A DNA stretch of 63,973 nucleotides, counting the filler. It is 6 parts of 6 records of this genome, joined end to end, with 100 filler letters (N's around TTAATTAATTAA, not from the genome) between each part and the next. Parts side by side here need not be neighbours in the genome. Positions count along the whole stretch, not along the records: positions 24,230 to 32,884 come from SRR20825006_1751; 5 more parts are not named here. The stretch is one strand, 5' to 3'. Both the position numbers and the translations under genes were made by a program. The notes beneath the pieces are model-generated. The model worked only from the letters and a program-made list of their open reading frames with translations, was not told the DNA's origin and made no database searches. This document shows positions 24,130-58,126 of this stretch, one piece after another; the first letter of the stretch is position 1, and each line of letters starts with the position of its first letter.

Positions 24130-24229
24130 NNNNNNNNNNNNNNNNNNNNNNNNNNNNNNNNNNNNNNNNNNNNTTAATTAATTAANNNNNNNNNNNNNNN
24201 NNNNNNNNNNNNNNNNNNNNNNNNNNNNN
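24130..24229. other. Artificial contig linker
   Basis: N44-TTAATTAATTAA-N44, with stops in all frames. The same linker occurs five times in the window. Confidence 0.98.
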
Positions 24230-24257
24230 GTCCTTGGTTCGAGCCCAAGAGGGGGAG
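24230..24257 (+). tRNA. tRNA 3' fragment, probably tRNA-Asn (real gene end or att duplication)
   Basis: T-arm CTTGG-TTCGAGC-CCAAG, acceptor strand AGGGGGA and discriminator G. The anticodon is not in the window, so the identity is inferred. Confidence 0.75.
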
Positions 24258-24267
24258 CAGAGACAGC

Positions 24268-24303
24268 AAGGCTTCAGAGAAATTCACACTCTGGAGCCTT
24301 TTT
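24268..24303 (+). terminator. Terminator after tRNA fragment
   Basis: AAGGCTTCAGAG...CTCTGGAGCCTT stem followed by T's. Confidence 0.7.
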
Positions 24304-24304
24304 C

Positions 24305-24325
24305 ATTTGCACGCAATTTGCACGC
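24305..24325 (+). repeat. 10-bp direct repeat, candidate integrase arm-type site
   Basis: ATTTGCACGC-a-ATTTGCACGC about 50 bp from the tRNA end. Confidence 0.5.
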
Positions 24326-24626
24326 GGATTGAAAAAAATAAAGTTTGGGACCAAACTTTAACATTTAAGATTAAATTTTTCCAAAATAATTTGCCATTTG
24401 TCCCAAATACTTACCCTTAACTTTTGCACTGGATCCTATTTCAATTTTATAGTGTTCAGGAAGAAAAGCGTGTATTAAAATTGGAATAGGGTGGGACCTT
24501 TTTAAGGAAGGCTTCAATAAAATGTAAATTGTTTTCATTTATTTTTCAAATTATCGCTTATGTTTTGTGCATTACGGACAATGGCAATTGCAAGATTCGC
24601 GTAATAAGGAACAGAAATTCTGGAGC

Positions 24627-27362
24627 CTATTTTAGTGCTTTCGAAATTCTATAGTATCGCCTGTCTAATGCGTCTTTTCCACCTTCCATTACCGCACAAA
24701 CTGCAGAACGGATAGCTCTGTCCTGCAAAGCATTGTTTCCTGCTACAACAATTTGCCCTGTTTGAAAATTCATGTGGACAATGTTGTCGGAGTTGGCATT
24801 CACTGCAATATTTGGGTTATGAGTTACAAGCAATAATTGTCTATTATTCTTGAGGGTCTTAAATCCGGGAACTACGAAGCTTGAAATCAGCCTTGTGTCC
24901 AAGTCATCTTCCGGTTGGTCTATTATTAAAGGAATGTTATTGAGGGCAAGTAGCAGTCCTAGCATTCCAGCTGTGCGTTCTCCGGCAGAACCTGTTTGTA
25001 TATCCTCTTCTTTTCCTTGTTTTTTAAATTTTAATACGAGTTTATCTTCAGGTACCCAAACATGCAATCTATCTATGTCTTCTGGAGTATTTTGTTTTAG
25101 CCAGTCTATGTGTCTAGCCAACCTAATGTCAAGTCCTTTTGGTTCAGCTTCTGTAACGGAAACAAAGTTTTTTAATTCGTCTTTTCTTTTATCCCATCGA
25201 GTAGTTTCGTTTTCATTGATAATGTTGGCTATCAGTCCGGAACTAGATTCAGTTTCTTCATCATAATTGTAAATATATCCTGAAAATTCATTTCCCTCCT
25301 TGCGTAACAGTTTCCTAAAACTAGTATTAGCTTGCTCAGCATCAGCCATTGGTTGTAACTCAATTATTAAAAAAGGGTTTTCAGAAGTATCCACTTCTTT
25401 CCATCTGTCAATAATCTCTCTACGCTTTACCCTCAGCTCTTTCTCCTTTTCGACAATTAAATTGTATGTTTCCTCTAAAACTTGGTTAAGACTCTCCAGT
25501 CGCTGTTTTTGGGTGTTTATTAAAGCCAATTTATCATTTAAAGAACTTCTGCGTTGGATTAAAACTTCATATGATTCACTTCCAAACTCCTTAATTTTAT
25601 CAACGATTCCATCATACGCATTTTTAGATTTCTGATATTCATTATGCCAGGGAAGAGCATTAATCTGTCCAATTAGATTTTCCTTGTATGGGTTAAGGAT
25701 TAATAGTGCTTCAGAAATTTTTGCGTTGGCCGATTTTAAGGCTTCCTCCATTTTCTGTATAAATTCTGAAGATTCTTCAACAATTACCTCAGAACTGGTT
25801 TCAGGAATTAGGATATTAGGAATATTCTTTTGTGTTTCTTCTAATTCAATAAGCCATTTAGAAAATGATTTTTCAGTGTCAATAAAGAACTTATTAGCAC
25901 TATTTAATTTATTGAACTTGTCAAGGGTTTCCTTGTATTCAGAACTCTCATATAGCTTAATTTTATTGTTAGTCGCTTCAACTTGAGCTTTTAAATTCTT
26001 TTCCTCAGAAATTGCGGATTTTAATTCTCTGGCAGAAGCCCTATCTGCAAGCCATTTCTTTAAAAGGTTATTCCGCTCTTCTATCCAATTTTGCTTATCG
26101 AATTGTGAATCAATTAACTCGATAAGTTTGGAAGGATCCCCTGTAAGAGCATAAAGTTCCTTTTGATTGAAAATTTGAATGGGAAAGAGTTCACTAATAT
26201 TCGTTACAATATTTTCTTCTTTCCATTCAGTGTTAAGATCATCCCAAATTTGTAAACTATGGGTTTTATTTTTCCAAGTTATCTTTTGTAATTGGCCATC
26301 TTTAATGATTTCAACGGTTATTATGGTATTTTCCCGTAACATTCCCGGGATGTGTTTTTTCCCTATTTGATTAAACTTATTGAATTCGATTTGTACTTCA
26401 TCTGGCATTTCATCAATTCTGTGGAGAGCAATTCTCAAATAGTTGACAATGGTAGATTTTCCAGATCCTCTTCCTCCGATTACAGAGGAAAGCCAAGGAC
26501 TGAATTTGGCATATAAGGGATTTCCGTTACCTGATTTATATCCATTTGAAACCGAAATGGATTTTATGAAGTATCTGTTGTTTATTAAGTTAGGATTTCC
26601 TGATGCATTGTCATTCCTGATTATACCATCTTCTCCATCATGTAAAGCAAGCTTCAAGGCGTCCAATGAAGGAGAGCTCATTTTAACCCATGTGTAATTG
26701 GTTCCCACTTCACTTCTTATGTGACTGTCAGAACCAATTACTTGTGCCAAAGATAGCTTTGCTTGCTTGTATATCTCAGGTAGCTCGTACGAGCTATTTA
26801 CTAATTCAATTGCCAGTAAATTGTCTCGATTATTCTTAAGTGCCTGATTTAGCGTGTTTCCTGAACATTTATCGAATAAACCTGCTCCTTTGTCTACATG
26901 TGCTGGAATTGCGATTCCCCCTCGTTTTACTATTTTGTCAATCGCCACTTCAAGGGTAATGTCCGTCACACCATCACTATCGCCATAAGTACCACGATAT
27001 CCACAATCGCCAAGTAATCCTGCAATGTCTTCACTTGTTGCTTCTATATCTAGAATCGCTAATAAGTGAATCCCTTGATTCACAGAAATTTCCACCCCAG
27101 GAAAAATATATAACTCTCGAAAACCATCTACTTGGTTTTCCTTCATTTCTAAATATTTGGTTTTGAGTTCATCTATCCATCCGCCTGTATTGTGGTCGGT
27201 AACTGCTACACAGTCAATTTCTTTTCTCATATACTCAAACAACCAGACCTCACAGGAAATGTTCCTTTCGGTCTCATCTCCTTTACCATAGTCAGTTGAT
27301 TTTGGAGTATGGTTATGGAAGTCAAATTTCCACCATTTTGCCCCGTGGATATATTCTAACAT
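24627..27362 (-). CDS. PHP phosphoesterase-ABC/SMC-like ATPase fusion (Ppl/TrlF-like, probable anti-phage)
   Basis: PHP motifs DFHNHT, VTDHN, GVEI, AHVD, GSDSH; Walker A GGRGSGKST; coiled coil; signature SAGER; Walker B IIDQPEDDLD; VTHNPN. Confidence 0.88.
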   Translation of the reverse strand: MLEYIHGAKWWKFDFHNHTPKSTDYGKGDETERNISCEVWLFEYMRKEIDCVAVTDHNTGGWIDELKTKYLEMKENQVDGFRELYIFPGVEISVNQGIHLLAILDIEATSEDIAGLLGDCGYRGTYGDSDGVTDITLEVAIDKIVKRGGIAIPAHVDKGAGLFDKCSGNTLNQALKNNRDNLLAIELVNSSYELPEIYKQAKLSLAQVIGSDSHIRSEVGTNYTWVKMSSPSLDALKLALHDGEDGIIRNDNASGNPNLINNRYFIKSISVSNGYKSGNGNPLYAKFSPWLSSVIGGRGSGKSTIVNYLRIALHRIDEMPDEVQIEFNKFNQIGKKHIPGMLRENTIITVEIIKDGQLQKITWKNKTHSLQIWDDLNTEWKEENIVTNISELFPIQIFNQKELYALTGDPSKLIELIDSQFDKQNWIEERNNLLKKWLADRASARELKSAISEEKNLKAQVEATNNKIKLYESSEYKETLDKFNKLNSANKFFIDTEKSFSKWLIELEETQKNIPNILIPETSSEVIVEESSEFIQKMEEALKSANAKISEALLILNPYKENLIGQINALPWHNEYQKSKNAYDGIVDKIKEFGSESYEVLIQRRSSLNDKLALINTQKQRLESLNQVLEETYNLIVEKEKELRVKRREIIDRWKEVDTSENPFLIIELQPMADAEQANTSFRKLLRKEGNEFSGYIYNYDEETESSSGLIANIINENETTRWDKRKDELKNFVSVTEAEPKGLDIRLARHIDWLKQNTPEDIDRLHVWVPEDKLVLKFKKQGKEEDIQTGSAGERTAGMLGLLLALNNIPLIIDQPEDDLDTRLISSFVVPGFKTLKNNRQLLLVTHNPNIAVNANSDNIVHMNFQTGQIVVAGNNALQDRAIRSAVCAVMEGGKDALDRRYYRISKALK

Positions 27363-27628
27363 CAGTATTTATTTTAAGCTTTTTCTCAAAGGTTTGACAA
27401 TACGCATTATTCCGAAGAGTGTTGTAGTATAGATGCTATTCAGAAAGGGCATTTCAAATTTCCTCATTAATATGTTCTTTATGTTTAAAAGGCTTGATTT
27501 TCAAGTCTAGTTATGTTAAAATTCAATTTACCAGTCTGCTTTGGTTGCTTATCACTGAAAGCAATTTGACTGTGCCATTCTCAAGTCTGTTAAACCAGTT
27601 ATCGTTATCTTACAAGCGTTGTTTTGAA

Positions 27629-28555
27629 TCAAAACGGGGTATGGCTTTTTCCCTTTTCTCTTTTAAACTCTTTTCGATATGTTGTCGACAAATTACCTTG
27701 CGGAATCTCTTTAGCTATATTTTTGGAGATTAACCTTTCCGTTAATATATCTGCAAGACTTTGTGCTATTTCAATATCTATATTTTCCTCAAAACCAAGA
27801 GTTTTATTCGTAAATTTTGTTATCCTGTCCTTAAATTTCCTATTGAAATAATAAACACGCTCAAGTTTCCCTATATCCAAATCTGTAAAATATTCTACAA
27901 TGTCGTCTTTAGTGAATATTATATATTCTTCCTTATTTTTCTCGGCATAATACTCTTTACTTTTAAGAAATTTATTTAATAAATTGTTTTGCACAGTTTC
28001 GATATTCAGCCGCTTAGTGCCATATTCAATCATTTTTTCTTTTCTCCATGCTACAATCCAGACCAATCCGGTTATTAAAATTGACATAATCCAAATAGTT
28101 GTGAAAACCCAATCAGTCGGATTAATCAAATTTCCTAAAATTGGATGTTCAATTGCTTTTGACGGGAAAAACCAAATGAAGGATATTAAAATAGTTACTG
28201 CTGAGGCACTTATTTTGGGTGCCAAACTCGCTTTTTTTAAGTTCTTAATTTCTGATTTTAATTGCTTGTCAAGTTTTGCAATTTTTTTCTTGTGTGATTT
28301 AGCAGGAATTGTTTCTCGTATTACTTCGATTAATTCGGCTCTATTTGAAGGAAACGTCTCAGATTTGATAAATTCTAATGCAGCCATAATTTTTGGGTAC
28401 AACAATTCATATGCTTTATTACTGAATTGACCATCGGAATTCTTTCCTGAGTGAACTACTTTTAGAAGATTTTGAAGTTCTTTTTTAATTTCAGAAACTT
28501 CATTTGACTTTAAATCAAATTCGTTAATAATGTCTTCTAGTTTTACAAACTTCAT
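27629..28555 (-). CDS. Hypothetical 2-TM protein with degenerate J-domain-like N-terminus
   Basis: EIKKELQNLLKVVHSGKN...KIMAALEFI resembles J-domain helices II-III with HPD replaced by HSG. Two hydrophobic helices in the middle. Confidence 0.6.
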   Translation of the reverse strand: MKFVKLEDIINEFDLKSNEVSEIKKELQNLLKVVHSGKNSDGQFSNKAYELLYPKIMAALEFIKSETFPSNRAELIEVIRETIPAKSHKKKIAKLDKQLKSEIKNLKKASLAPKISASAVTILISFIWFFPSKAIEHPILGNLINPTDWVFTTIWIMSILITGLVWIVAWRKEKMIEYGTKRLNIETVQNNLLNKFLKSKEYYAEKNKEEYIIFTKDDIVEYFTDLDIGKLERVYYFNRKFKDRITKFTNKTLGFEENIDIEIAQSLADILTERLISKNIAKEIPQGNLSTTYRKEFKREKGKSHTPF

Positions 28556-28653
28556 TTCTATTCAAATTGATTAAAGGATCTAGTCTATTAGTAGTAGCGG
28601 ATTTCGATTCAAAAGCCTTTAAATCAATTTTTTTAAACCGCTAATACCTAGAC

Positions 28654-29601
28654 TCAATTGTCATTAATTTTTTCTTGTTTCAAACCAAGTAAATTCTCTA
28701 ATAGTTTTTCATGTTTGGCGTATGATGAACGACCAAGCTGAATCATCTTTTTTAATTTATTTAAATCCGATTCCAACATATTTGTTCCGTGTTTTGGCTC
28801 TGGAAATGAATCGCTAATTCGTACCATATTCAAGTTTGGAAATAAAAGTTTTGATATGATTGTATTACTGTTTGTATTGGCTGTCAGGACCTTTTCAATG
28901 AAATTATAAATGCCAATTAGTTTTAAAAGCTTGTGCTTTAGTCCAGAGGAATTTTCTACGTAATGTCCTACTCCGACATTTAACAAATTAATATTGGATT
29001 CATCATAGTTTAAGGCCTTATAGGCATCGATCATAGAATATAGAGTTGAATTATTTGCAATAAATCCACCATCTACAACTTCAATTTCTCCATGATTTTC
29101 CGTCTTGATTTTTACTTTTTCAAAAAAGGGATATGCAGCACTTGAACATCTCAGCGCAGTCTCAATGGTACAATCAAAACCAGGTTTAAATGACTGCTTC
29201 ATTCCATGTGCTTGTTGAATATCTGTTTTAAAAACTAAAGGCATTTGAGTTTCAAAGTTTAAAGCTACAATTCCAATATTTGTTTTGAACGCATCAAATT
29301 TTTGTGAACCGAAGATTTTGAGTGCTTCTTCCTTTAAGGCTTTACTTCTCCCACTTTTAGAATTCTTATTCATGATTTTTGGGATTATGGATAAATAGAG
29401 CTCTTCTATTTTCGAAACCTCGAAGCCAAGCGCAATTAATGCTGCTATTATAGATCCTGTGCTTGTTCCAAACACTAAACCAAAATGCTCGTAAAGGGGG
29501 CTTCCTAATCTTAATTCAAGTTCTTTTAAAACTCCAATAGTGTAAACGCCTTTAGACCCTCCACCGTCTAAAACAAGTATGTTTAATTTTTTATCACTCA
29601 T
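28654..29601 (-). CDS. CBASS patatin-like phospholipase effector (CapV/CapE-like)
   Basis: DGGGSKG, GTSTG nucleophile, DGG catalytic Asp. Start overlaps the CD-NTase stop (TAATG). Confidence 0.92.
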   Translation of the reverse strand: MSDKKLNILVLDGGGSKGVYTIGVLKELELRLGSPLYEHFGLVFGTSTGSIIAALIALGFEVSKIEELYLSIIPKIMNKNSKSGRSKALKEEALKIFGSQKFDAFKTNIGIVALNFETQMPLVFKTDIQQAHGMKQSFKPGFDCTIETALRCSSAAYPFFEKVKIKTENHGEIEVVDGGFIANNSTLYSMIDAYKALNYDESNINLLNVGVGHYVENSSGLKHKLLKLIGIYNFIEKVLTANTNSNTIISKLLFPNLNMVRISDSFPEPKHGTNMLESDLNKLKKMIQLGRSSYAKHEKLLENLLGLKQEKINDN

Positions 29602-30518
29602 TAATATTCATTCCAGAATTTAATTAATTGGGAGACAAAAGTTGTTGCATCAGTTTTATTCCATTGCTGGTCTTCGCTACCAAATAGGTTTCTTTGCTCA
29701 TTTTGAACTAAATATTCTGTCATAGTTCCATCATTATTGTCATTATAAAATTGATTTATGATGGCAACCATAATATCACAATAAGTATTTTTCCTGTAAT
29801 TCGAGTTTTTAGCGTTATACATTAAGCACTCAATGAAATAGGACGGTGCTAATTCTTTTGTTATATAACCTCTGTTTACCATCGCAGCCTTTATGTTTTT
29901 TAGTACTCTGACTGAAGGCTTAAAATTTTCATGTGTATTCTCTTGGCGATTTTTTATACTACCATTTTTTAAGTGAATCTTTGGATAGTTAATAACCGTT
30001 TTCTGAGGTACATCATGTTCTGTTTTGAAAATGATACCTTCAATATAATCTGTTTTATTAAATGATGAATATGAGTTGTATTTTCTGTAAGGATTGCATA
30101 CAACAACATCACAATCAAGCCTACTGCCATCTCCCTTTACAACAATAGCTTTGTTACCAACATCCACATTGTTGTTACCATAGCACTTTTGTAATTGCTC
30201 AATTACTGCTGTTTTAAAAGCGGCTAATGAATATTTTGCATCGTCATAGTCAGAATCAAACTGCCTTTTTTGTTCTTGTGTAAGTGCGGATAAGTTCTTT
30301 GAAAATATAGAACGAAACTCAACCACCAAATCTACATCACTATTGCCGTAAATATTAGTATAGTTTGGATAGGAGCCTTGTAAATATGTAACATAGTTTA
30401 CATCGTTATTCCAGTTCATTTTTTTAATACAATTTTCAACACTTTTATGGGTAGCTGCCGAAGATTGAACTGCACCTTGATTTGACCATGTTTGTAATTG
30501 TCTTTCAGGTATCGCCAT
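29601..30518 (-). CDS. cdnE: CBASS cGAS/DncV-like nucleotidyltransferase (CdnE-like)
   Basis: MAIPERQLQTWSNQGA N-terminus, YLQGSY..YTNI...SDVDLV, GNKAI, DCDVV, INYPKIH..NG..KN, APSYFIECLMYN. Confidence 0.9.
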   Translation of the reverse strand: MAIPERQLQTWSNQGAVQSSAATHKSVENCIKKMNWNNDVNYVTYLQGSYPNYTNIYGNSDVDLVVEFRSIFSKNLSALTQEQKRQFDSDYDDAKYSLAAFKTAVIEQLQKCYGNNNVDVGNKAIVVKGDGSRLDCDVVVCNPYRKYNSYSSFNKTDYIEGIIFKTEHDVPQKTVINYPKIHLKNGSIKNRQENTHENFKPSVRVLKNIKAAMVNRGYITKELAPSYFIECLMYNAKNSNYRKNTYCDIMVAIINQFYNDNNDGTMTEYLVQNEQRNLFGSEDQQWNKTDATTFVSQLIKFWNEY

Positions 30519-30627
30519 GTTGGTATTTAATTGTTCCTAACTTGATTATAAACAAAGCTGTTGTCGTCATGGACTGCCAATATGGTTGACTTTGCCTAAG
30601 ATTTAAAAAAAGCATGGTTTTTACCAC

Positions 30628-30965
30628 GCTCACTGAAAATTTGAGGGGGATAGAGTTAAATGTAAGAAATTTCAATTAATTGTTAAACGTGGAATTCTGT
30701 AAGGCTTTTAAATAATGTCATGAAATGAAAGATTTAGCTTCCAATGCTGAATCGCTTTCTTTTTTGTTTTGCTTCGCAAAAGAAAAAGGGTAAAGCAAGA
30801 GGGTAACAGGCTAACGCCATGTTACAGGCATTCATTTTTTCGCAAAACATTTATTTTCAATTAATTAAATGGTTTTTGAAAATTATTTAAAAGAAGATGT
30901 TTGAAATTTTTCACGGAAAAATACCGACAGCCCAATAAACTCGACAAATTTTTCACGAAAAAATG
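30628..30965. repeat. Structured non-coding element, copy 1 (upstream of CBASS)
   Basis: Collinear with 32467-32782. Shared blocks: GCTCACTG.AAAT, TAAATGTAAGAA.TTTCAAT, TTTTTGTTTTGC...GCAAAAGAAAAA, GTAAAGCAAGAGG, CAGCCCA.TAAA.TC. Confidence 0.85.
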
Positions 30966-31212
30966 TATGGACCAGATAAATTAAGACCCATCGATTTATT
31001 TAAGAGAGTAGCTTGATAATTATATTCGTTTTGTTGAGAAACTGTCCTAAAGATTGGGGTATCTACACGGAGACGGCCATTAGTGTTACGTAGTTTAGCG
31101 ATTAAATTAATAGGCCGGCCTACGGATAAACACCAAACCGAAAATCCTTGTGGATTTTCAGAAGTAGGTAAGAGGAAGCTATTACTTATCATTCTTTGTT
31201 GCCAACCGTTTT

Positions 31213-32415
31213 TTATTCTAATTTTAAAAATGTTTCGGTATAAGGTTTGGGTTCACCTTCTTTCAAAATTATATCTCCTACTAAATAGTCCAATACTGTT
31301 CCTAAAAGGAGTAGTATTCCATTTGACACTTCCGATGCTAAATTTGATTTTTTATGATTATTTAAAATACTATTATGGTACCATTTTAATGGTATTTGAT
31401 GACTAATTATTTGTCCATAGTCCGTTGAACCAAAATAATTTGTTAGGAAGAAACCTTCACCACGATGGGTTTTCATTTCTGTTAATTTCAGTTTTTTTAA
31501 TTCAGCCGTATCCTTTACCTTATATTTCACTTCTTTTTCAATTGATTTAAAATAATCAAGCCATACAAGTCCAATTTCCTGATTTCTTCTATATTTTAAT
31601 TCGGGTATTTTATTTTCAATGTGTTCAATGTTCTTTTCTAGTTGCTCTAGGTACAAATCATTATCATCGGTAGAGCCTGTAGACTTCTTATCAGAAATTA
31701 GTTCCTGAACTCCAAATGTTGTTTCAATCTTATTATTGAAATTAGTAACAAATCGGTAAGTTGGTATCATTTCTTTATTTTTTAAAGGCTCAACTAGTCT
31801 ATAATACTCTTGATAAATTGGGTCTTTTTCTGAAAATTGACTTGAACTATATGGGTCAACATTAATTCTCAAAAAGGTGAAATAAAAAAGGTTCAAAATC
31901 AAGTATGCGATTCCTGTAATTTTTAGAGATTTAATATTGTTATTTTCAATTGCAAATCCCGATACTAGAATTAAATATATTCCCGAAATCCCAGATAAGA
32001 AATCAGCAACGTACTTGTAAGTATAGTTTTCTGTAGTCAGGAATAATGTGAAAATTATGATTATGATCGGCATTAAAACAAATTGAAAACCTGTCACATA
32101 AATCATTATTTTACCCAAATAGTCTTTTTTTCCTAAAATACGTGTCGAGATAACAAACAAAATTATTACTGGAATTACGGAAAAGAGATTTAAAATGGCA
32201 GGTTTAATCCAATCGGATATGCTCGTACCAATAGAAAGAAAAATAAATGATGCGGTATAAATTGTAAAATGAAAAAAGAACTGTCTTAACTTTTCGTTTT
32301 TATCCTTTCCTACTATTTTATCTATTATTTTTCGTGGTTTGATTAAGAAAAAAAGGAACTCATTAATCCATTCCGAGATTTCTTCACTTTTATAATCCTT
32401 AAAGAAATCTAACAT
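31213..32415 (-). CDS. Hypothetical membrane protein (about 5 N-terminal TM helices, soluble domain, C-terminal hydrophobic segment)
   Basis: 400-aa ORF in AT-rich DNA. Topology from hydrophobicity; no motif recognised. Confidence 0.7.
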   Translation of the reverse strand: MLDFFKDYKSEEISEWINEFLFFLIKPRKIIDKIVGKDKNEKLRQFFFHFTIYTASFIFLSIGTSISDWIKPAILNLFSVIPVIILFVISTRILGKKDYLGKIMIYVTGFQFVLMPIIIIIFTLFLTTENYTYKYVADFLSGISGIYLILVSGFAIENNNIKSLKITGIAYLILNLFYFTFLRINVDPYSSSQFSEKDPIYQEYYRLVEPLKNKEMIPTYRFVTNFNNKIETTFGVQELISDKKSTGSTDDNDLYLEQLEKNIEHIENKIPELKYRRNQEIGLVWLDYFKSIEKEVKYKVKDTAELKKLKLTEMKTHRGEGFFLTNYFGSTDYGQIISHQIPLKWYHNSILNNHKKSNLASEVSNGILLLLGTVLDYLVGDIILKEGEPKPYTETFLKLE

Positions 32416-32466
32416 TTCATTTTTTATTTAAATTGTTGGTCTCGGTCTCGGCTCATTGTAGTTGCG

Positions 32467-32782
32467 GCTCACTGTAAATTTTTTGGGGATGGTGATAAAT
32501 GTAAGAATTTTCAATAAATAAGAAAATGTGGAATCCCGTAAAGAGTTGAAATAATTTCATCCTATTCGAACATTGGAATGCTTTCGTTTTTGTTTTGCTG
32601 CGCAAAAGAAAAATGTAAAGCAAGAGGATAGCACGCTGGCGCGATGCTATTGATTTATTTTCCTTCGGAAAAGCCCATTTTTAAAGAGATTTTTGAAAAT
32701 ATTAATTAATTGGAATTAAAGAGTTTTTCATGGAAAAGTACTCTCAGCCCAGTAAAATCAATGAATTTTTCATGGAAAAATG
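32467..32782. repeat. Structured non-coding element, copy 2 (upstream of 400-aa membrane gene)
   Basis: Diverged collinear copy of 30628-30965. Confidence 0.85.
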
Positions 32783-32884
32783 CTTTTTTGAGGTTTATTC
32801 AAGGATATCTATAGCCGAATCTCTATGGGAAATACATATTAGCGACCAATTTTCCATTTTTGGTGAAAAAATGCTCTCAGCCCA

Positions 32885-32984
32885 NNNNNNNNNNNNNNNN
32901 NNNNNNNNNNNNNNNNNNNNNNNNNNNNTTAATTAATTAANNNNNNNNNNNNNNNNNNNNNNNNNNNNNNNNNNNNNNNNNNNN
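32885..32984. other. Artificial contig linker
   Basis: N44-TTAATTAATTAA-N44. Confidence 0.98.
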
Positions 32985-41714: not shown

Positions 41715-41814
41715 NNNNNNNNNNNNNNNNNNNNNNNNNNNNNNNNNNNNNNNNNNNNTTAATTAATTAANNNNNNNNNNNNNNNNNNNNNNNNNNNNNN
41801 NNNNNNNNNNNNNN
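41715..41814. other. Artificial contig linker
   Basis: N44-TTAATTAATTAA-N44. Confidence 0.98.
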
Positions 41815-51447: not shown

Positions 51448-51547
51448 NNNNNNNNNNNNNNNNNNNNNNNNNNNNNNNNNNNNNNNNNNNNTTAATTAAT
51501 TAANNNNNNNNNNNNNNNNNNNNNNNNNNNNNNNNNNNNNNNNNNNN
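51448..51547. other. Artificial contig linker
   Basis: N44-TTAATTAATTAA-N44. Confidence 0.98.
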
Positions 51548-58026: not shown

Positions 58027-58126
58027 NNNNNNNNNNNNNNNNNNNNNNNNNNNNNNNNNNNNNNNNNNNNTTAATTAATTAANNNNNNNNNNNNNNNNNN
58101 NNNNNNNNNNNNNNNNNNNNNNNNNN
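58027..58126. other. Artificial contig linker
   Basis: N44-TTAATTAATTAA-N44. Confidence 0.98.

Follow-up and report, generated by a model that had tools for sequence, protein, structure and literature searches.

What is the repeated non-coding element that stands ahead of each module of the defence island analysed here, and could it let these modules move? Outside phage satellites, integrons and transposons, little is known about how defence islands move and swap their content. The window, i.e., the whole stretch of DNA analysed (63,973 nucleotides), consists of six contigs of 33–58% G+C, joined by artificial N44-TTAATTAATTAA-N44 linkers. A first-pass annotation had described a defence island in it. 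The gene content agrees with this description (PADLOC: CBASS, Ppl); the island amounts to no more than a single 8655-bp contig (24230–32884). The same contig was recovered in a comparison of contigs across four runs. Sequence comparison points to a composite repeat, the invariant centre of which is likely a copy of the oriT of Bacteroidota MobB/BtgB (MOB_B) elements, so that islands devoid of a relaxase would be mobilised in trans. The features of the contig are as follows.

24627–27362, minus strand: Ppl (PHP + ATPase) defence gene, last on the contig (PADLOC Ppl, 1.4e-119).
28654–29601, minus strand: CBASS patatin-like phospholipase effector (Pfam Patatin, 1.3e-24; PADLOC effector, 6.3e-113).
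29601–30518, minus strand: CBASS CD-NTase, first gene of the module of copy 1 (PADLOC Cyclase, E = 2.3e-99).
30537–31066, minus strand: copy 1 (type A), full composite element (from alignments with 28 copies).
30566–30598, no strand: imperfect palindrome with the consensus GGCATAGTCAACCAAATTGGTAGTATATGCC, separating block L from the cyclase start.
30628–30753, minus strand: block L and hairpin 0 of copy 1, promoter-like (GGAATTC, ATTTC..GAAAT, TTACATTTAAC, CCCCC).
30754–30796, no strand: hairpin 1 of copy 1; its stem is long and A/T-rich (TTTTTTGTTTTGC-TTC-GCAAAAGAAAAA) and is enclosed by GCTTTC/GTAAAGC (from folding).
30794–30802, plus strand: 9-nt core AGCAAGAGG of copy 1 (minus strand: CCTCTTGCT), unpaired between hairpins 1 and 2; candidate nic region.
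30803–30825, no strand: hairpin 2 of copy 1, with 9 bp, a bulged A and a 4-nt loop.
30826–30965, no strand: right block of copy 1, with weak hairpin 3 and one double box (repeat family D6, alignment).
31213–32415, minus strand: predicted membrane protein of 400 aa without family match, module of copy 2.
32467–32884, minus strand: copy 2 (type B), truncated where the contig ends (from sequence, alignment and repeat families).
Parts of copy 2: block L, 32467–32579; hairpin 1, 32580–32621; core, 32619–32627; hairpin 2, 32628–32650; hairpin 3, 32658–32672; double boxes, 32722–32782 and 32855–32884 (partial).
32885–32984, no strand: artificial contig linker, N44-TTAATTAATTAA-N44; a second linker is at 24130–24229.

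Both copies lie where the first-pass annotation had put them, copy 1 at 30628–30965 and copy 2 at 32467–32782, with the sequences given there. They are collinear (mean column identity in the alignment, 75%) and form the repeat families D2, D6 and D8 of the window. The genes ahead of which they stand are on the minus strand and start 110 nt from copy 1 (cyclase, start at 30518) and 52 nt from copy 2 (400-aa gene, start at 32415), as described. The gene below copy 1 is indeed a CBASS cyclase: PADLOC finds it together with the patatin effector, and finds the Ppl gene as well. The length of about 330 bp was too short. In the alignment with 28 copies conservation extends over approximately 530–750 nt. 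The true extent of copy 1 is approximately 30537–31066; copy 2 is cut at 32884, and the last 30 bases of its contig continue, in another contig of the same runs, into a further copy. A joint 30808>32608 in contigs of four runs was rejected as a deletion form; it has only 24 letters on one side and probably reflects cross-matching of the repeated core.

The element is modular: protein-site-like double boxes come first, then hairpins 3 and 2, the 9-nt AGCAAGAGG, hairpin 1 and finally a promoter-like block. On the cargo strand, copy 1 begins with a 5' extension, one double box (TTTTTCACGGAAAAA-N-CAGCCCAATAAA-N-TTTTTCACGAAAAAA, ~30906–30965), a hairpin 3-like structure, hairpin 2 and the core, and continues with hairpin 1, hairpin 0, block L, the palindrome and an AAGTT box. 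Block L and hairpin 0 are kept in 23 of 28 copies. The palindrome is missing from copy 2; a cargo ATG lies within it in few loci only, and a general arrangement of this kind was rejected. With regard to a MITE or other small non-autonomous transposon (terminal inverted repeats, target duplications, dispersed insertion), the element ends have an imperfect inverted 14–15-mer in common (GATACCCCAATCTTT, AAAAGTTGGGTATAT), but copies are confined to islands or mob regions.

The centre of the element is strongly conserved. In the window, GTAAAGCAAGAGG, reported as invariant, is present at 30790 and at 32615 and nowhere else (chance expectation, 0.07; none of 100 shuffles gave two). Among 75 distinct core copies collected from Flavobacteriaceae genomes, the 9-nt AGCAAGAGG is unvarying except in one, which has AGCGAGAGG. 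The hairpins at 30803–30825 and 32628–32650 differ by the three compensatory pair changes that the annotation had named, and its proposal that the fold is under selection was borne out in 65 distinct copies of hairpin 2. Covariation was tested by counting paired cells and double changes against shuffles and slid controls. Paired cells amount to 94.5% (83.0% in shuffles; equalled in 0 of 500), with pairing of 11–47% in the slid controls. Double changes affect six of nine pairs and 84 cells, compared with 26.6 expected (0 of 500 shuffles). Of 72 distinct hairpin 1 segments, 62 fold with z below −2, and the central stem takes 32 different forms. AGCAAGAGG is unpaired between the two hairpins. An invariant 9-mer between two covarying hairpins is an oriT-like arrangement, i.e., a nic region beside an inverted repeat. 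The putative oriT centre comprises hairpin 1, single-stranded AGCAAGAGG/CCTCTTGCT and the bulged hairpin 2; past the latter lie protein-site-like boxes.

The same core is found in front of mobilisation genes. At three loci (L020, L088, L089) it lies ~230 nt upstream of a BfmA/BtgA-like gene, followed by a MobB relaxase gene (NF041495; 368–405 bits with a cut-off of 200) and one for a MobC-like coupling protein. In four Flagellimonas genomes (G001–G004) a match of model R1 is present 664–776 nt upstream of 15 of 15 MobB genes, eight of these 15 sequences having belonged to the model seed; CCTCTTGCT is on the strand opposite to the mob genes in all 15. On plasmids of Bacteroidota the exact motif with a hairpin occurs 149–175 nt upstream of bfmA/btgA at four of seven assessable loci, and one-mismatch variants with a hairpin occur at the other three. 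Hosts of motif-bearing plasmids are Parabacteroides, Bacteroides, Chryseobacterium and Flavobacterium. Three of eight plasmids examined are typed "non-mobilizable" by PLSDB though mob genes are present, and all three have the motif or a one-mismatch variant. The annotation had offered an oriT as one form of a single-stranded DNA signal, and homology and position (15 of 15 MobB loci of the four genomes; Bacteroidota plasmids) support this option. Its statement that the element belongs to no named family is correct for Rfam (0 matches) but fails biologically, because the element in all likelihood corresponds to the oriT region of MOB_B (BtgB/MobB) relaxases. Since the core matches the oriT ahead of Bacteroidota MobB genes, the defence modules probably travel between cells by conjugation machinery borrowed from another element. 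Alternatively, the conserved core may serve the regulation of the mob operons. An oriT function leaves block L, the palindrome and the double boxes unexplained.

Most copies are away from mob genes. The exact 25–27-nt core pattern was found in 28 stretches of ~19 Flavobacteriaceae genomes; BLAST matches were obtained in 54 of 101 Flagellimonas genomes and in 13 of 401 genomes of a family-wide sample, just two of the latter being full length. In Flagellimonas and relatives, defence islands linked to tRNA or tmRNA genes (tRNA-Asn, Asp, Arg, Val or tmRNA adjoining) carry one to three direct copies of the element, with an integrase and without a relaxase. A relaxase was beside the element at only one of 21 island loci (L020, within ~6 kb). 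Truncated "short" copies, lone right blocks and lone left blocks also exist. The element and MobB co-occur: 49 genomes have both, five the element only, 30 MobB only and 17 neither (odds ratio 5.6, p = 0.0015), i.e., MobB is present in 49 of 54 element-positive and 30 of 47 element-negative genomes; both the shared core and the relatedness of the genomes confound this association. Five element-positive genomes are without a MobB match (three counting strong matches only).

The lack of a relaxase at 20 of 21 island loci, the truncated copies and lone blocks, and breakpoints that in some cases fall outside the core would all suit relic oriTs, that is, leftovers of decayed conjugative or mobilisable elements, transfer-dead and serving only as homology for recombination between islands. 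Relics would decay, and the unvarying 9-nt core and the two hairpins kept by compensatory changes in 65–75 distinct copies, mostly orphans, therefore speak against this explanation. Moreover, R1 matches away from a MobB gene exceed those beside one in the four genomes (21 vs 15). We consider relics unlikely.

Tyrosine integrases are frequent neighbours. They occur within 6 kb of the element at five loci (L006, L008, L010, L011, L017) and directly adjoin right-block copies at others (L078–L083). Together with the bulged base, reminiscent of the extrahelical bases of attC, and with the arrays of two to three direct copies, they raise an integron-like alternative, in which the hairpins would be attC-like or att sites where the adjacent integrases insert or excise cassettes. 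The integrases are of the ordinary arm-binding, tRNA-/tmRNA-linked type (domains Arm-DNA-bind_5, SAM_5, Phage_integrase) and not IntI; scores of integron-integrase models on the element-associated integrases were far below cut-offs. An attC site measures ~60–140 bp and lies at the cassette 3' end, whereas the element has 530–750 nt and precedes each module on the 5' side. Mob operons of integrase-free plasmids have the core just as well. No 14-mer of the tRNA 3' half or of the downstream 40 nt recurs in six tRNA-Asn loci, which speaks against tRNA-end repeats between modules; tandem accretion at the tRNA site was rejected on this ground. Integrase-driven cassettes are thus highly improbable, the least probable of the explanations considered.

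The cargo is always on the side of the element opposite to that of the mob genes in complete elements. On this leading side the promoter-like block comes after each copy, and then an anti-phage module, which varies. Of 27 copies, 23 have a cargo-strand ORF (100 aa or more) beginning 123–300 nt from the core, and PADLOC (E ≤ 1e-12) recognises 28 of 83 cargo-side proteins and has matches at 14 of 20 loci, in addition to CBASS and Ppl of the window. The systems include DarTG, Gabija, SIR2-HerA, retron, PD-Lambda-5 and Shosha. The view that the element heads variable defence cargo is confirmed by these counts. A HEPN-like protein is also encoded among the element neighbours.

The regular distance to the cargo ORFs invites a regulatory explanation: a shared promoter with a structured 5' leader RNA on the cargo strand would co-activate all defence modules, and the palindrome would be the operator of an XRE repressor encoded by the island. 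Block L contains a −33/−7 pair (TTTTC...TACATTTA) close to the Bacteroidetes promoter consensus. Block L and the palindrome also stand alone upstream of other genes, after XRE-like ORFs. G.T (in RNA, G.U) counts lean to the cargo strand (10 cells vs ~3); RNA and DNA folding parameters contradict each other as to the strand. The core does not fit this scheme: it likewise precedes mob operons, whose coding strand is the opposite one, it is found on small plasmids without such cargo, and it occurs separately from block L. No covariance model of Rfam 15 matched the element at E ≤ 1, and related loci yielded nothing beyond tRNA and tmRNA genes and chance-level matches. A small RNA transcribed on the plus strand from TAAATTTG was rejected because this box is less conserved than its surroundings, being perfect in only ~8 of 23 full copies. 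A leader for the whole element is quite unlikely, slightly more so than relic oriTs. The leader-RNA option of the annotation may be retained for block L alone, which is promoter-like and occurs separately, and fails for the core.

The two flanks of the core vary independently. Left- and right-flank identities are uncorrelated (r = 0.05; 231 pairs of 22 full-length copies). Loci L020 and L025 are 93% identical on the left and 53% on the right; for L017 and L023 the values are 60 and 100%. The core behaves as a reassortment point, or putative recombination hotspot. In the comparison of L010 with L013 neither breakpoint is in the core; they map to the leader end and the boxes, and therefore not all exchange occurs at the core.

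A mechanism for the favoured oriT function can be proposed. A co-resident conjugative element would supply the MobB relaxase and the BfmA/BtgA accessory protein, which together would bind hairpin 2 and the boxes. MobB would nick the CCTCTTGCT strand just 3' of hairpin 2; the assignment of the strand is weak. The nicked strand would then be piloted into the recipient, cargo first. From the arrangement of copies as direct repeats we infer that transfer could start at one copy and terminate at the next, so that single modules would be moved or deleted. Alternatively, relaxase-catalysed or homologous exchange in the invariant core would have the same outcome. Either exchange in the core or module-wise initiation and termination would explain the free reassortment of core flanks.

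A further step is conceivable, though we regard it as doubtful: the oriT copies may be the recombination sites of a relaxase-driven cassette system, integron-like but without an integron integrase. A visiting MobB relaxase would start at one copy and end at the next, or join two. Single modules with their own promoter block would be excised, passed to another cell and inserted at the oriT of an island already resident there, so that defence islands would grow module by module through conjugation.

The favoured reading offers a candidate route for defence genes in a marine flavobacterial lineage, where relaxase-less islands bear the oriT of resident MobB elements ahead of each defence module. 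It also provides a compact signature (hairpin, AGCAAGAGG, bulged hairpin) by which MOB_B transfer origins could be recognised across Bacteroidota, and with them mobilisable islands and plasmids overlooked by relaxase-based typing. Should the copies mediate exchange module by module, conjugation would shuffle immunity genes in the manner of cassettes.

Several known systems resemble this arrangement in part. In integron arrays (attI/attC), cargo units are likewise unrelated, the structured site has a conserved unpaired base and flanks reassort. Unlike integrons, the islands have no IntI, the site is 5–10 times longer than attC and lies at the head of the unit and not at its tail, the units carry their own promoter-like block, and the core belongs to a relaxase system.

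Relaxase-catalysed recombination between two oriTs is exemplified by TrwC, NikB, MobA of R1162 and Mob02281; we know of no such activity of MobB relaxases. As far as the available text of one report describes it, the reaction deletes the intervening DNA (PMC4902927). The present arrangement likewise has a DNA segment between direct oriT repeats; a crossover would be expected within the invariant nic region, which matches the uncorrelated flank identities. For the element described here such a reaction is hypothetical.

The MOB_B oriT systems themselves (btgA-btgB of the pBFTM10 type; mobA-mobB-mobC of CTn341/CTnDOT) have, like the element, the 9-nt motif and a hairpin upstream of the mob genes. 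According to the accessible parts of the respective reports, MobA and MobB nick the oriT of CTn341 (PMC3809561), and the oriT of pBFTM10 is bound by BtgA (PMC10865816). In contrast to these systems, most copies described here have no adjoining mob genes; one to three of them occur in an island, joined to a promoter-like block and to defence cargo.

In the available part of a preprint by Ares-Arroyo et al. (10.64898/2026.01.13.699239), the leading region of a conjugative element is defined as the side of oriT away from the genes for relaxase and accessory proteins, and the cargo described here likewise occupies that side. Unlike the gene sets of leading regions, the cargo comprises defence systems and not anti-defence genes. 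Its genes point away from oriT and so, were the cargo strand transferred, they would remain unread on the single strand entering the recipient.

A further likeness is with iOriTs, i.e., integrative elements with an oriT and without a relaxase, for which the same part of the preprint describes defence genes near oriT in six clinically relevant species of Pseudomonadota. As far as described there, these have in common with the present islands the tRNA linkage, the integrase, the oriT-like site, the absence of a relaxase, the defence genes beside oriT and, probably, helpers of the same oriT type in the genome. A single oriT is given for 85% of oriT-bearing islands; by that account several oriTs per island are unusual. 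Relative to the iOriT islands so described, those presented here are distinguished by the marine flavobacterial host, the MOB_B relaxase family and the repetition of the copies ahead of each module.

The element-bearing contig occupies positions 24230–32884 of the window (8655 bp, G+C content 0.33), with every gene on the minus strand. Linkers of the window are N44-TTAATTAATTAA-N44 at 24130–24229, 32885–32984, 41715–41814, 51448–51547 and 58027–58126. The G+C contents of the six joined contigs are, in order, 0.41, 0.33, 0.50, 0.57, 0.56 and 0.58, so adjoining segments are not necessarily from the same organism. Features of the 8655-bp contig:

24627–27362, minus strand: Ppl.
27629–28555, minus strand: gene of a 308-aa protein between Ppl and the CBASS operon, without Pfam or PADLOC match.
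28654–30518, minus strand: CBASS patatin effector and CD-NTase; copy 1 of the element comes next.
31213–32415, minus strand: 400-aa membrane protein, between copies 1 and 2.
32467–32884, minus strand: copy 2 of the element, continuing to the end of the contig.

All features described in the first-pass annotation, which had reported two diverged copies of a non-coding element with a covarying hairpin, are present. The two copies align with 75% identity, GTAAAGCAAGAGG is repeated in the window (2 occurrences against 0.07 expected), and three compensatory pairs distinguish the hairpin of copy 1 from that of copy 2. A 79-aa ORF at window 30953–31192 (minus strand) is probably not a real gene; it overlaps a terminator-like hairpin (about 31150–31170) as well as the 5′ extension of copy 1, which is conserved and non-coding. 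At the contig start, downstream of Ppl (window 24265–24310), Rfam gives a weak ctRNA_p42d match (31.1 bits against a gathering score of 50, E = 0.00097).

The full element, read on the cargo strand (the strand of the downstream cargo genes), is about 530–750 nt in length and consists of:

Part 1: one to three "double boxes", TTTTTnnnnAAAAA, CTCAGCCCAGTAAAATCAAT, TTTTTnnnnAAAAA.
Part 2: hairpin 3.
Part 3: hairpin 2, 9 bp with a bulged base.
Part 4: invariant CCTCTTGCT.
Parts 5 and 6: long hairpin 1, then hairpin 0.
Part 7: conserved block L.
Part 8: often an imperfect 31-bp palindrome and two AAGTTG boxes, with the cargo start codon next.

Exact search for the core pattern (hairpin 1, invariant 9-mer, hairpin 2) matched 28 stretches, from about 19 genomes of Flavobacteriaceae, chiefly Flagellimonas, Muricauda and Allomuricauda. 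Distinct copies number 28, including the two of the window; among the retrieved related loci (L-numbers), L003 was dropped as a duplicate of L002. Two or three direct copies, 1.8–6 kb apart, occur in many loci. BLAST with copy 2 as the query matched 54 of 101 genomes within that genus and 13 of 401 in an even family sample; full length was covered in only 2 of these 13, and the remaining 11 matches cover only hairpin 2 and CCTCTTGC.

Parts of the element are separable. Similarity ends just beyond hairpin 1 in five "short" copies, and a lone right block and a lone block L are found elsewhere in the same genomes. Block L, palindrome and AAGTTG boxes occur without the oriT core at L045:429–700 and L046:1501–1800 and in L048, L049 and L051; this combination looks like a portable promoter/operator module. 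Lone block L with palindrome usually directly follows an XRE-like ORF, upstream of, e.g., a ParA-like ATPase or TIR-like gene. In sequencing runs X1–X3 (comparison region, window 32496–32884), a second contig begins with the final 30 bases of the 8655-bp contig and carries a right block with 6 differences and, after another 2.4 kb, a block L with 10; thus, at least one further copy or module follows in that organism.

Full type A elements bear an imperfect inverted 14–15-mer at both ends, GATACCCCAATCTTT and AAAAGTTGGGTATAT, at window 31043–31066 and 30537–30560 and at the same positions in L004, L007, L010, L013, L014 and L026; each of the two adjoins a TATAAT..ATCAAG stretch. Copies that lie directly against the 3′ end of a convergent integrase have an "X block" in place of block L (L078:17850–18010, L080:17680–17900, L091:4100–4320; also L079, L081, L082 and L083). 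The long helices of the X block covary between loci, e.g., CCTATTTCAATTTTA/TAAAATTGAAACAGG versus CCTATCAGCTTTTTG/CAAAAACCCGATAGG, the tail GGTAAGATTGGGAC is conserved, and the block terminates in AAAAGTTGGGGTA, similar to the type A end. Rfam gave no match to the X block.

Position, architecture and conservation mark the core as the predicted oriT region of the MOB_B family. In L020, L088 and L089, a small ORF, a DUF5712 gene and a coupling-protein gene follow the core at a distance of about 230 nt, on the AGCAAGAGG-reading strand; NCBIfam names their products BfmA/BtgA mobilisation protein, MobB family relaxase (368–405 bits, cut-off 200) and MobC-like protein. The hairpin-motif-hairpin arrangement is upstream of MobB in 9 of 10 retrieved MobB loci (five genomes). 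In four Flagellimonas genomes, matches of R1 (covariance model of motif and hairpin 2) are found 664–776 nt upstream of 15/15 MobB genes, in one constant orientation. The R1 seed contains eight of these 15 sequences, which leaves seven independent ones; among the seven is a locus overlooked by the regular expression. Relaxase homologues, btgB among them, are present on 128 plasmids, including 53 Bacteroides and 20 Hymenobacter records. Eight plasmid loci were retrieved and seven were assessable. Exact motif and hairpin lie 149–175 nt upstream of bfmA/btgA in four of the seven (a Flavobacterium, a Chryseobacterium, a Parabacteroides btgAB plasmid and a B. fragilis btgA plasmid); in the other three the motif differs at one position (AGCAAGAAG in two, AGCAAGCAG in one) and a hairpin follows directly. 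The CTn341 oriT is nicked by MobA and MobB (PMC3809561) and the pBFTM10 oriT is bound by BtgA (PMC10865816). Plasmids NZ_CP092371.1 (L103), NZ_MN657149.1 (L105) and NZ_CP060787.1 (L109) are "non-mobilizable" in PLSDB, yet carry genes for both a coupling protein and a MobB/DUF5712 relaxase. A BfmA/BtgA gene is annotated in L103 and L109, and an unannotated 187-aa ORF is at that place in L105; a AGCAAGAGG-type motif or one-mismatch variant is upstream in all three.

Structure of the core is conserved. Sites matching AGC[AG]AGAGG were collected from the retrieved loci: 117 occurrences, 83 distinct sequences, 76 passing a simple hairpin filter and 75 distinct core copies after removal of a chance match at window 46729. 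Hairpin 2 (65 distinct 40-nt windows, two plasmid loci excluded) has 94.5% paired cells versus 83.0% in shuffles, and both-sided changes at 6 of 9 pairs (84 cells, 26.6 expected); neither value was reached in 500 shuffles. Slid controls gave 11–47% pairing. RNAalifold on 28 copies found compensatory changes at 8 of 9 pairs. Hairpin 1 has 32 different central stems, with fold z < −2 in 62 of 72 distinct windows. Its stem extends to the 9-mer, so that AGCAAGAGG forms a short invariant stretch that stays unpaired between two hairpins of variable sequence.

Copies occur both with and without a relaxase. R1 matches in the four genomes comprise 15 adjoining a MobB gene and 21 away from one. Among 21 island loci, the window counted, a relaxase is beside the element in L020 only. 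Islands neighbour tRNA-Asn (next to rseP, six loci), tRNA-Asp, tRNA-Arg, tRNA-Val or tmRNA genes; several contain arm-binding tyrosine integrases. On the hairpin-2 side, most islands encode a protein of about 400 aa, then one to three small (115–145 aa) paralogues of its C-terminal domain (L023:6496–8823; equivalents in L006, L007, L012–L015, L017, L019, L021–L025 and L078). These have no Pfam or NCBIfam match; the large protein has a HEPN-like middle and is placed among HEPN-domain proteins by the protein atlas. Cargo on the CCTCTTGCT strand is always present on the hairpin-1 side. Of 27 copies, 23 have an ORF of ≥100 aa whose start is 123–300 nt from the core, three have one at 416–486 nt, and one has none. 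By sequence matches, the cargo is mostly defence genes:

Window: CBASS, Ppl.
Other loci, named systems: DarTG, Gabija, SIR2-HerA, type II-A retron, PD-Lambda-5, Shosha, AbiH, AbiGi, AbiU2, GTPase-associated system.
Other loci, further: TIR, Mrr, OLD and PLD proteins; several PADLOC candidate systems.

PADLOC matches (E <= 1e-12) cover 28 of 83 cargo-side proteins and 14 of 20 loci. A non-defence module, a mercury-resistance operon (ArsR-like regulator, MerT, HMA proteins, MerA), lies between two copies at L026:8465–11500.

Flanks of the core are reassorted. Identities of the cargo side (150 nt) and the other side (120 nt) are uncorrelated (r = 0.05; 22 full-length copies, 231 pairs, short copies and copies near locus ends excluded). 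L020 and L025 are 93% identical on the cargo side and 53% on the other; L017 and L023, 60% and 100%. Window copy 1, L025 and mob-linked L020 have a single common cargo-side variant with three different other-side types. Exchange thus recurs in or near the invariant core of about 55 nt. Some exchange happens away from the core: a 2.4-kb segment common to L010 and L013 (94% identity, two whole copies and AbiH) ends at the leader end and in the boxes. Simple integrase-driven tandem accretion is disfavoured, since no tRNA-end repeats were found between the modules of six tRNA-Asn loci.

The best-supported reading is that the copies are orphan oriTs, and the relaxase-less islands would be mobilised in trans by MobB elements of the same genomes. 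MobB is present in 49/54 element-positive versus 30/47 element-negative genomes (odds ratio 5.6, p = 0.0015); when the count is restricted to strong matches, both are present in 39 genomes, the element alone in 3, MobB alone in 40 and neither in 19, both comparisons being confounded by the shared core and genome relatedness. By the customary rule, applied also in preprint 10.64898/2026.01.13.699239, the leading side is the one opposite the relaxase genes; cargo lies on this side and would therefore enter the recipient first. On the cargo strand, hairpin 2 immediately precedes CCTCTTGCT. In a common oriT layout, the transferred strand has an inverted repeat on the 5′ side of the nick, and the placement of hairpin 2 fits this layout with the cargo strand as the putative transferred strand. 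G.T counts lean to the same strand; folding energies leave the choice unsettled. With direct oriT repeats, transfer could start at one copy and end at the following one. Recombination between two oriTs, with loss of the intervening DNA, is catalysed by several relaxases (PMC4902927). Either process would move single modules and yield the observed mosaic. Probable roles of block L, the palindrome and the boxes are in cargo transcription and relaxosome assembly.

Neither MOB_B oriTs in flavobacterial defence islands nor oriT copies heading each module were found reported in the full-text literature searched, in which few subscription journals are covered. Relaxase-less oriT islands (iOriTs) with defence genes near oriT were described in 2026 for six species selected for clinical relevance, and 85% of oriT-bearing islands there have a single oriT copy (preprint 10.64898/2026.01.13.699239). 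The orphan-oriT case is solid and testable; it would amount to a new principle only if single defence modules are swapped between oriT copies by the MobB relaxase, integron-like and without an integron integrase.
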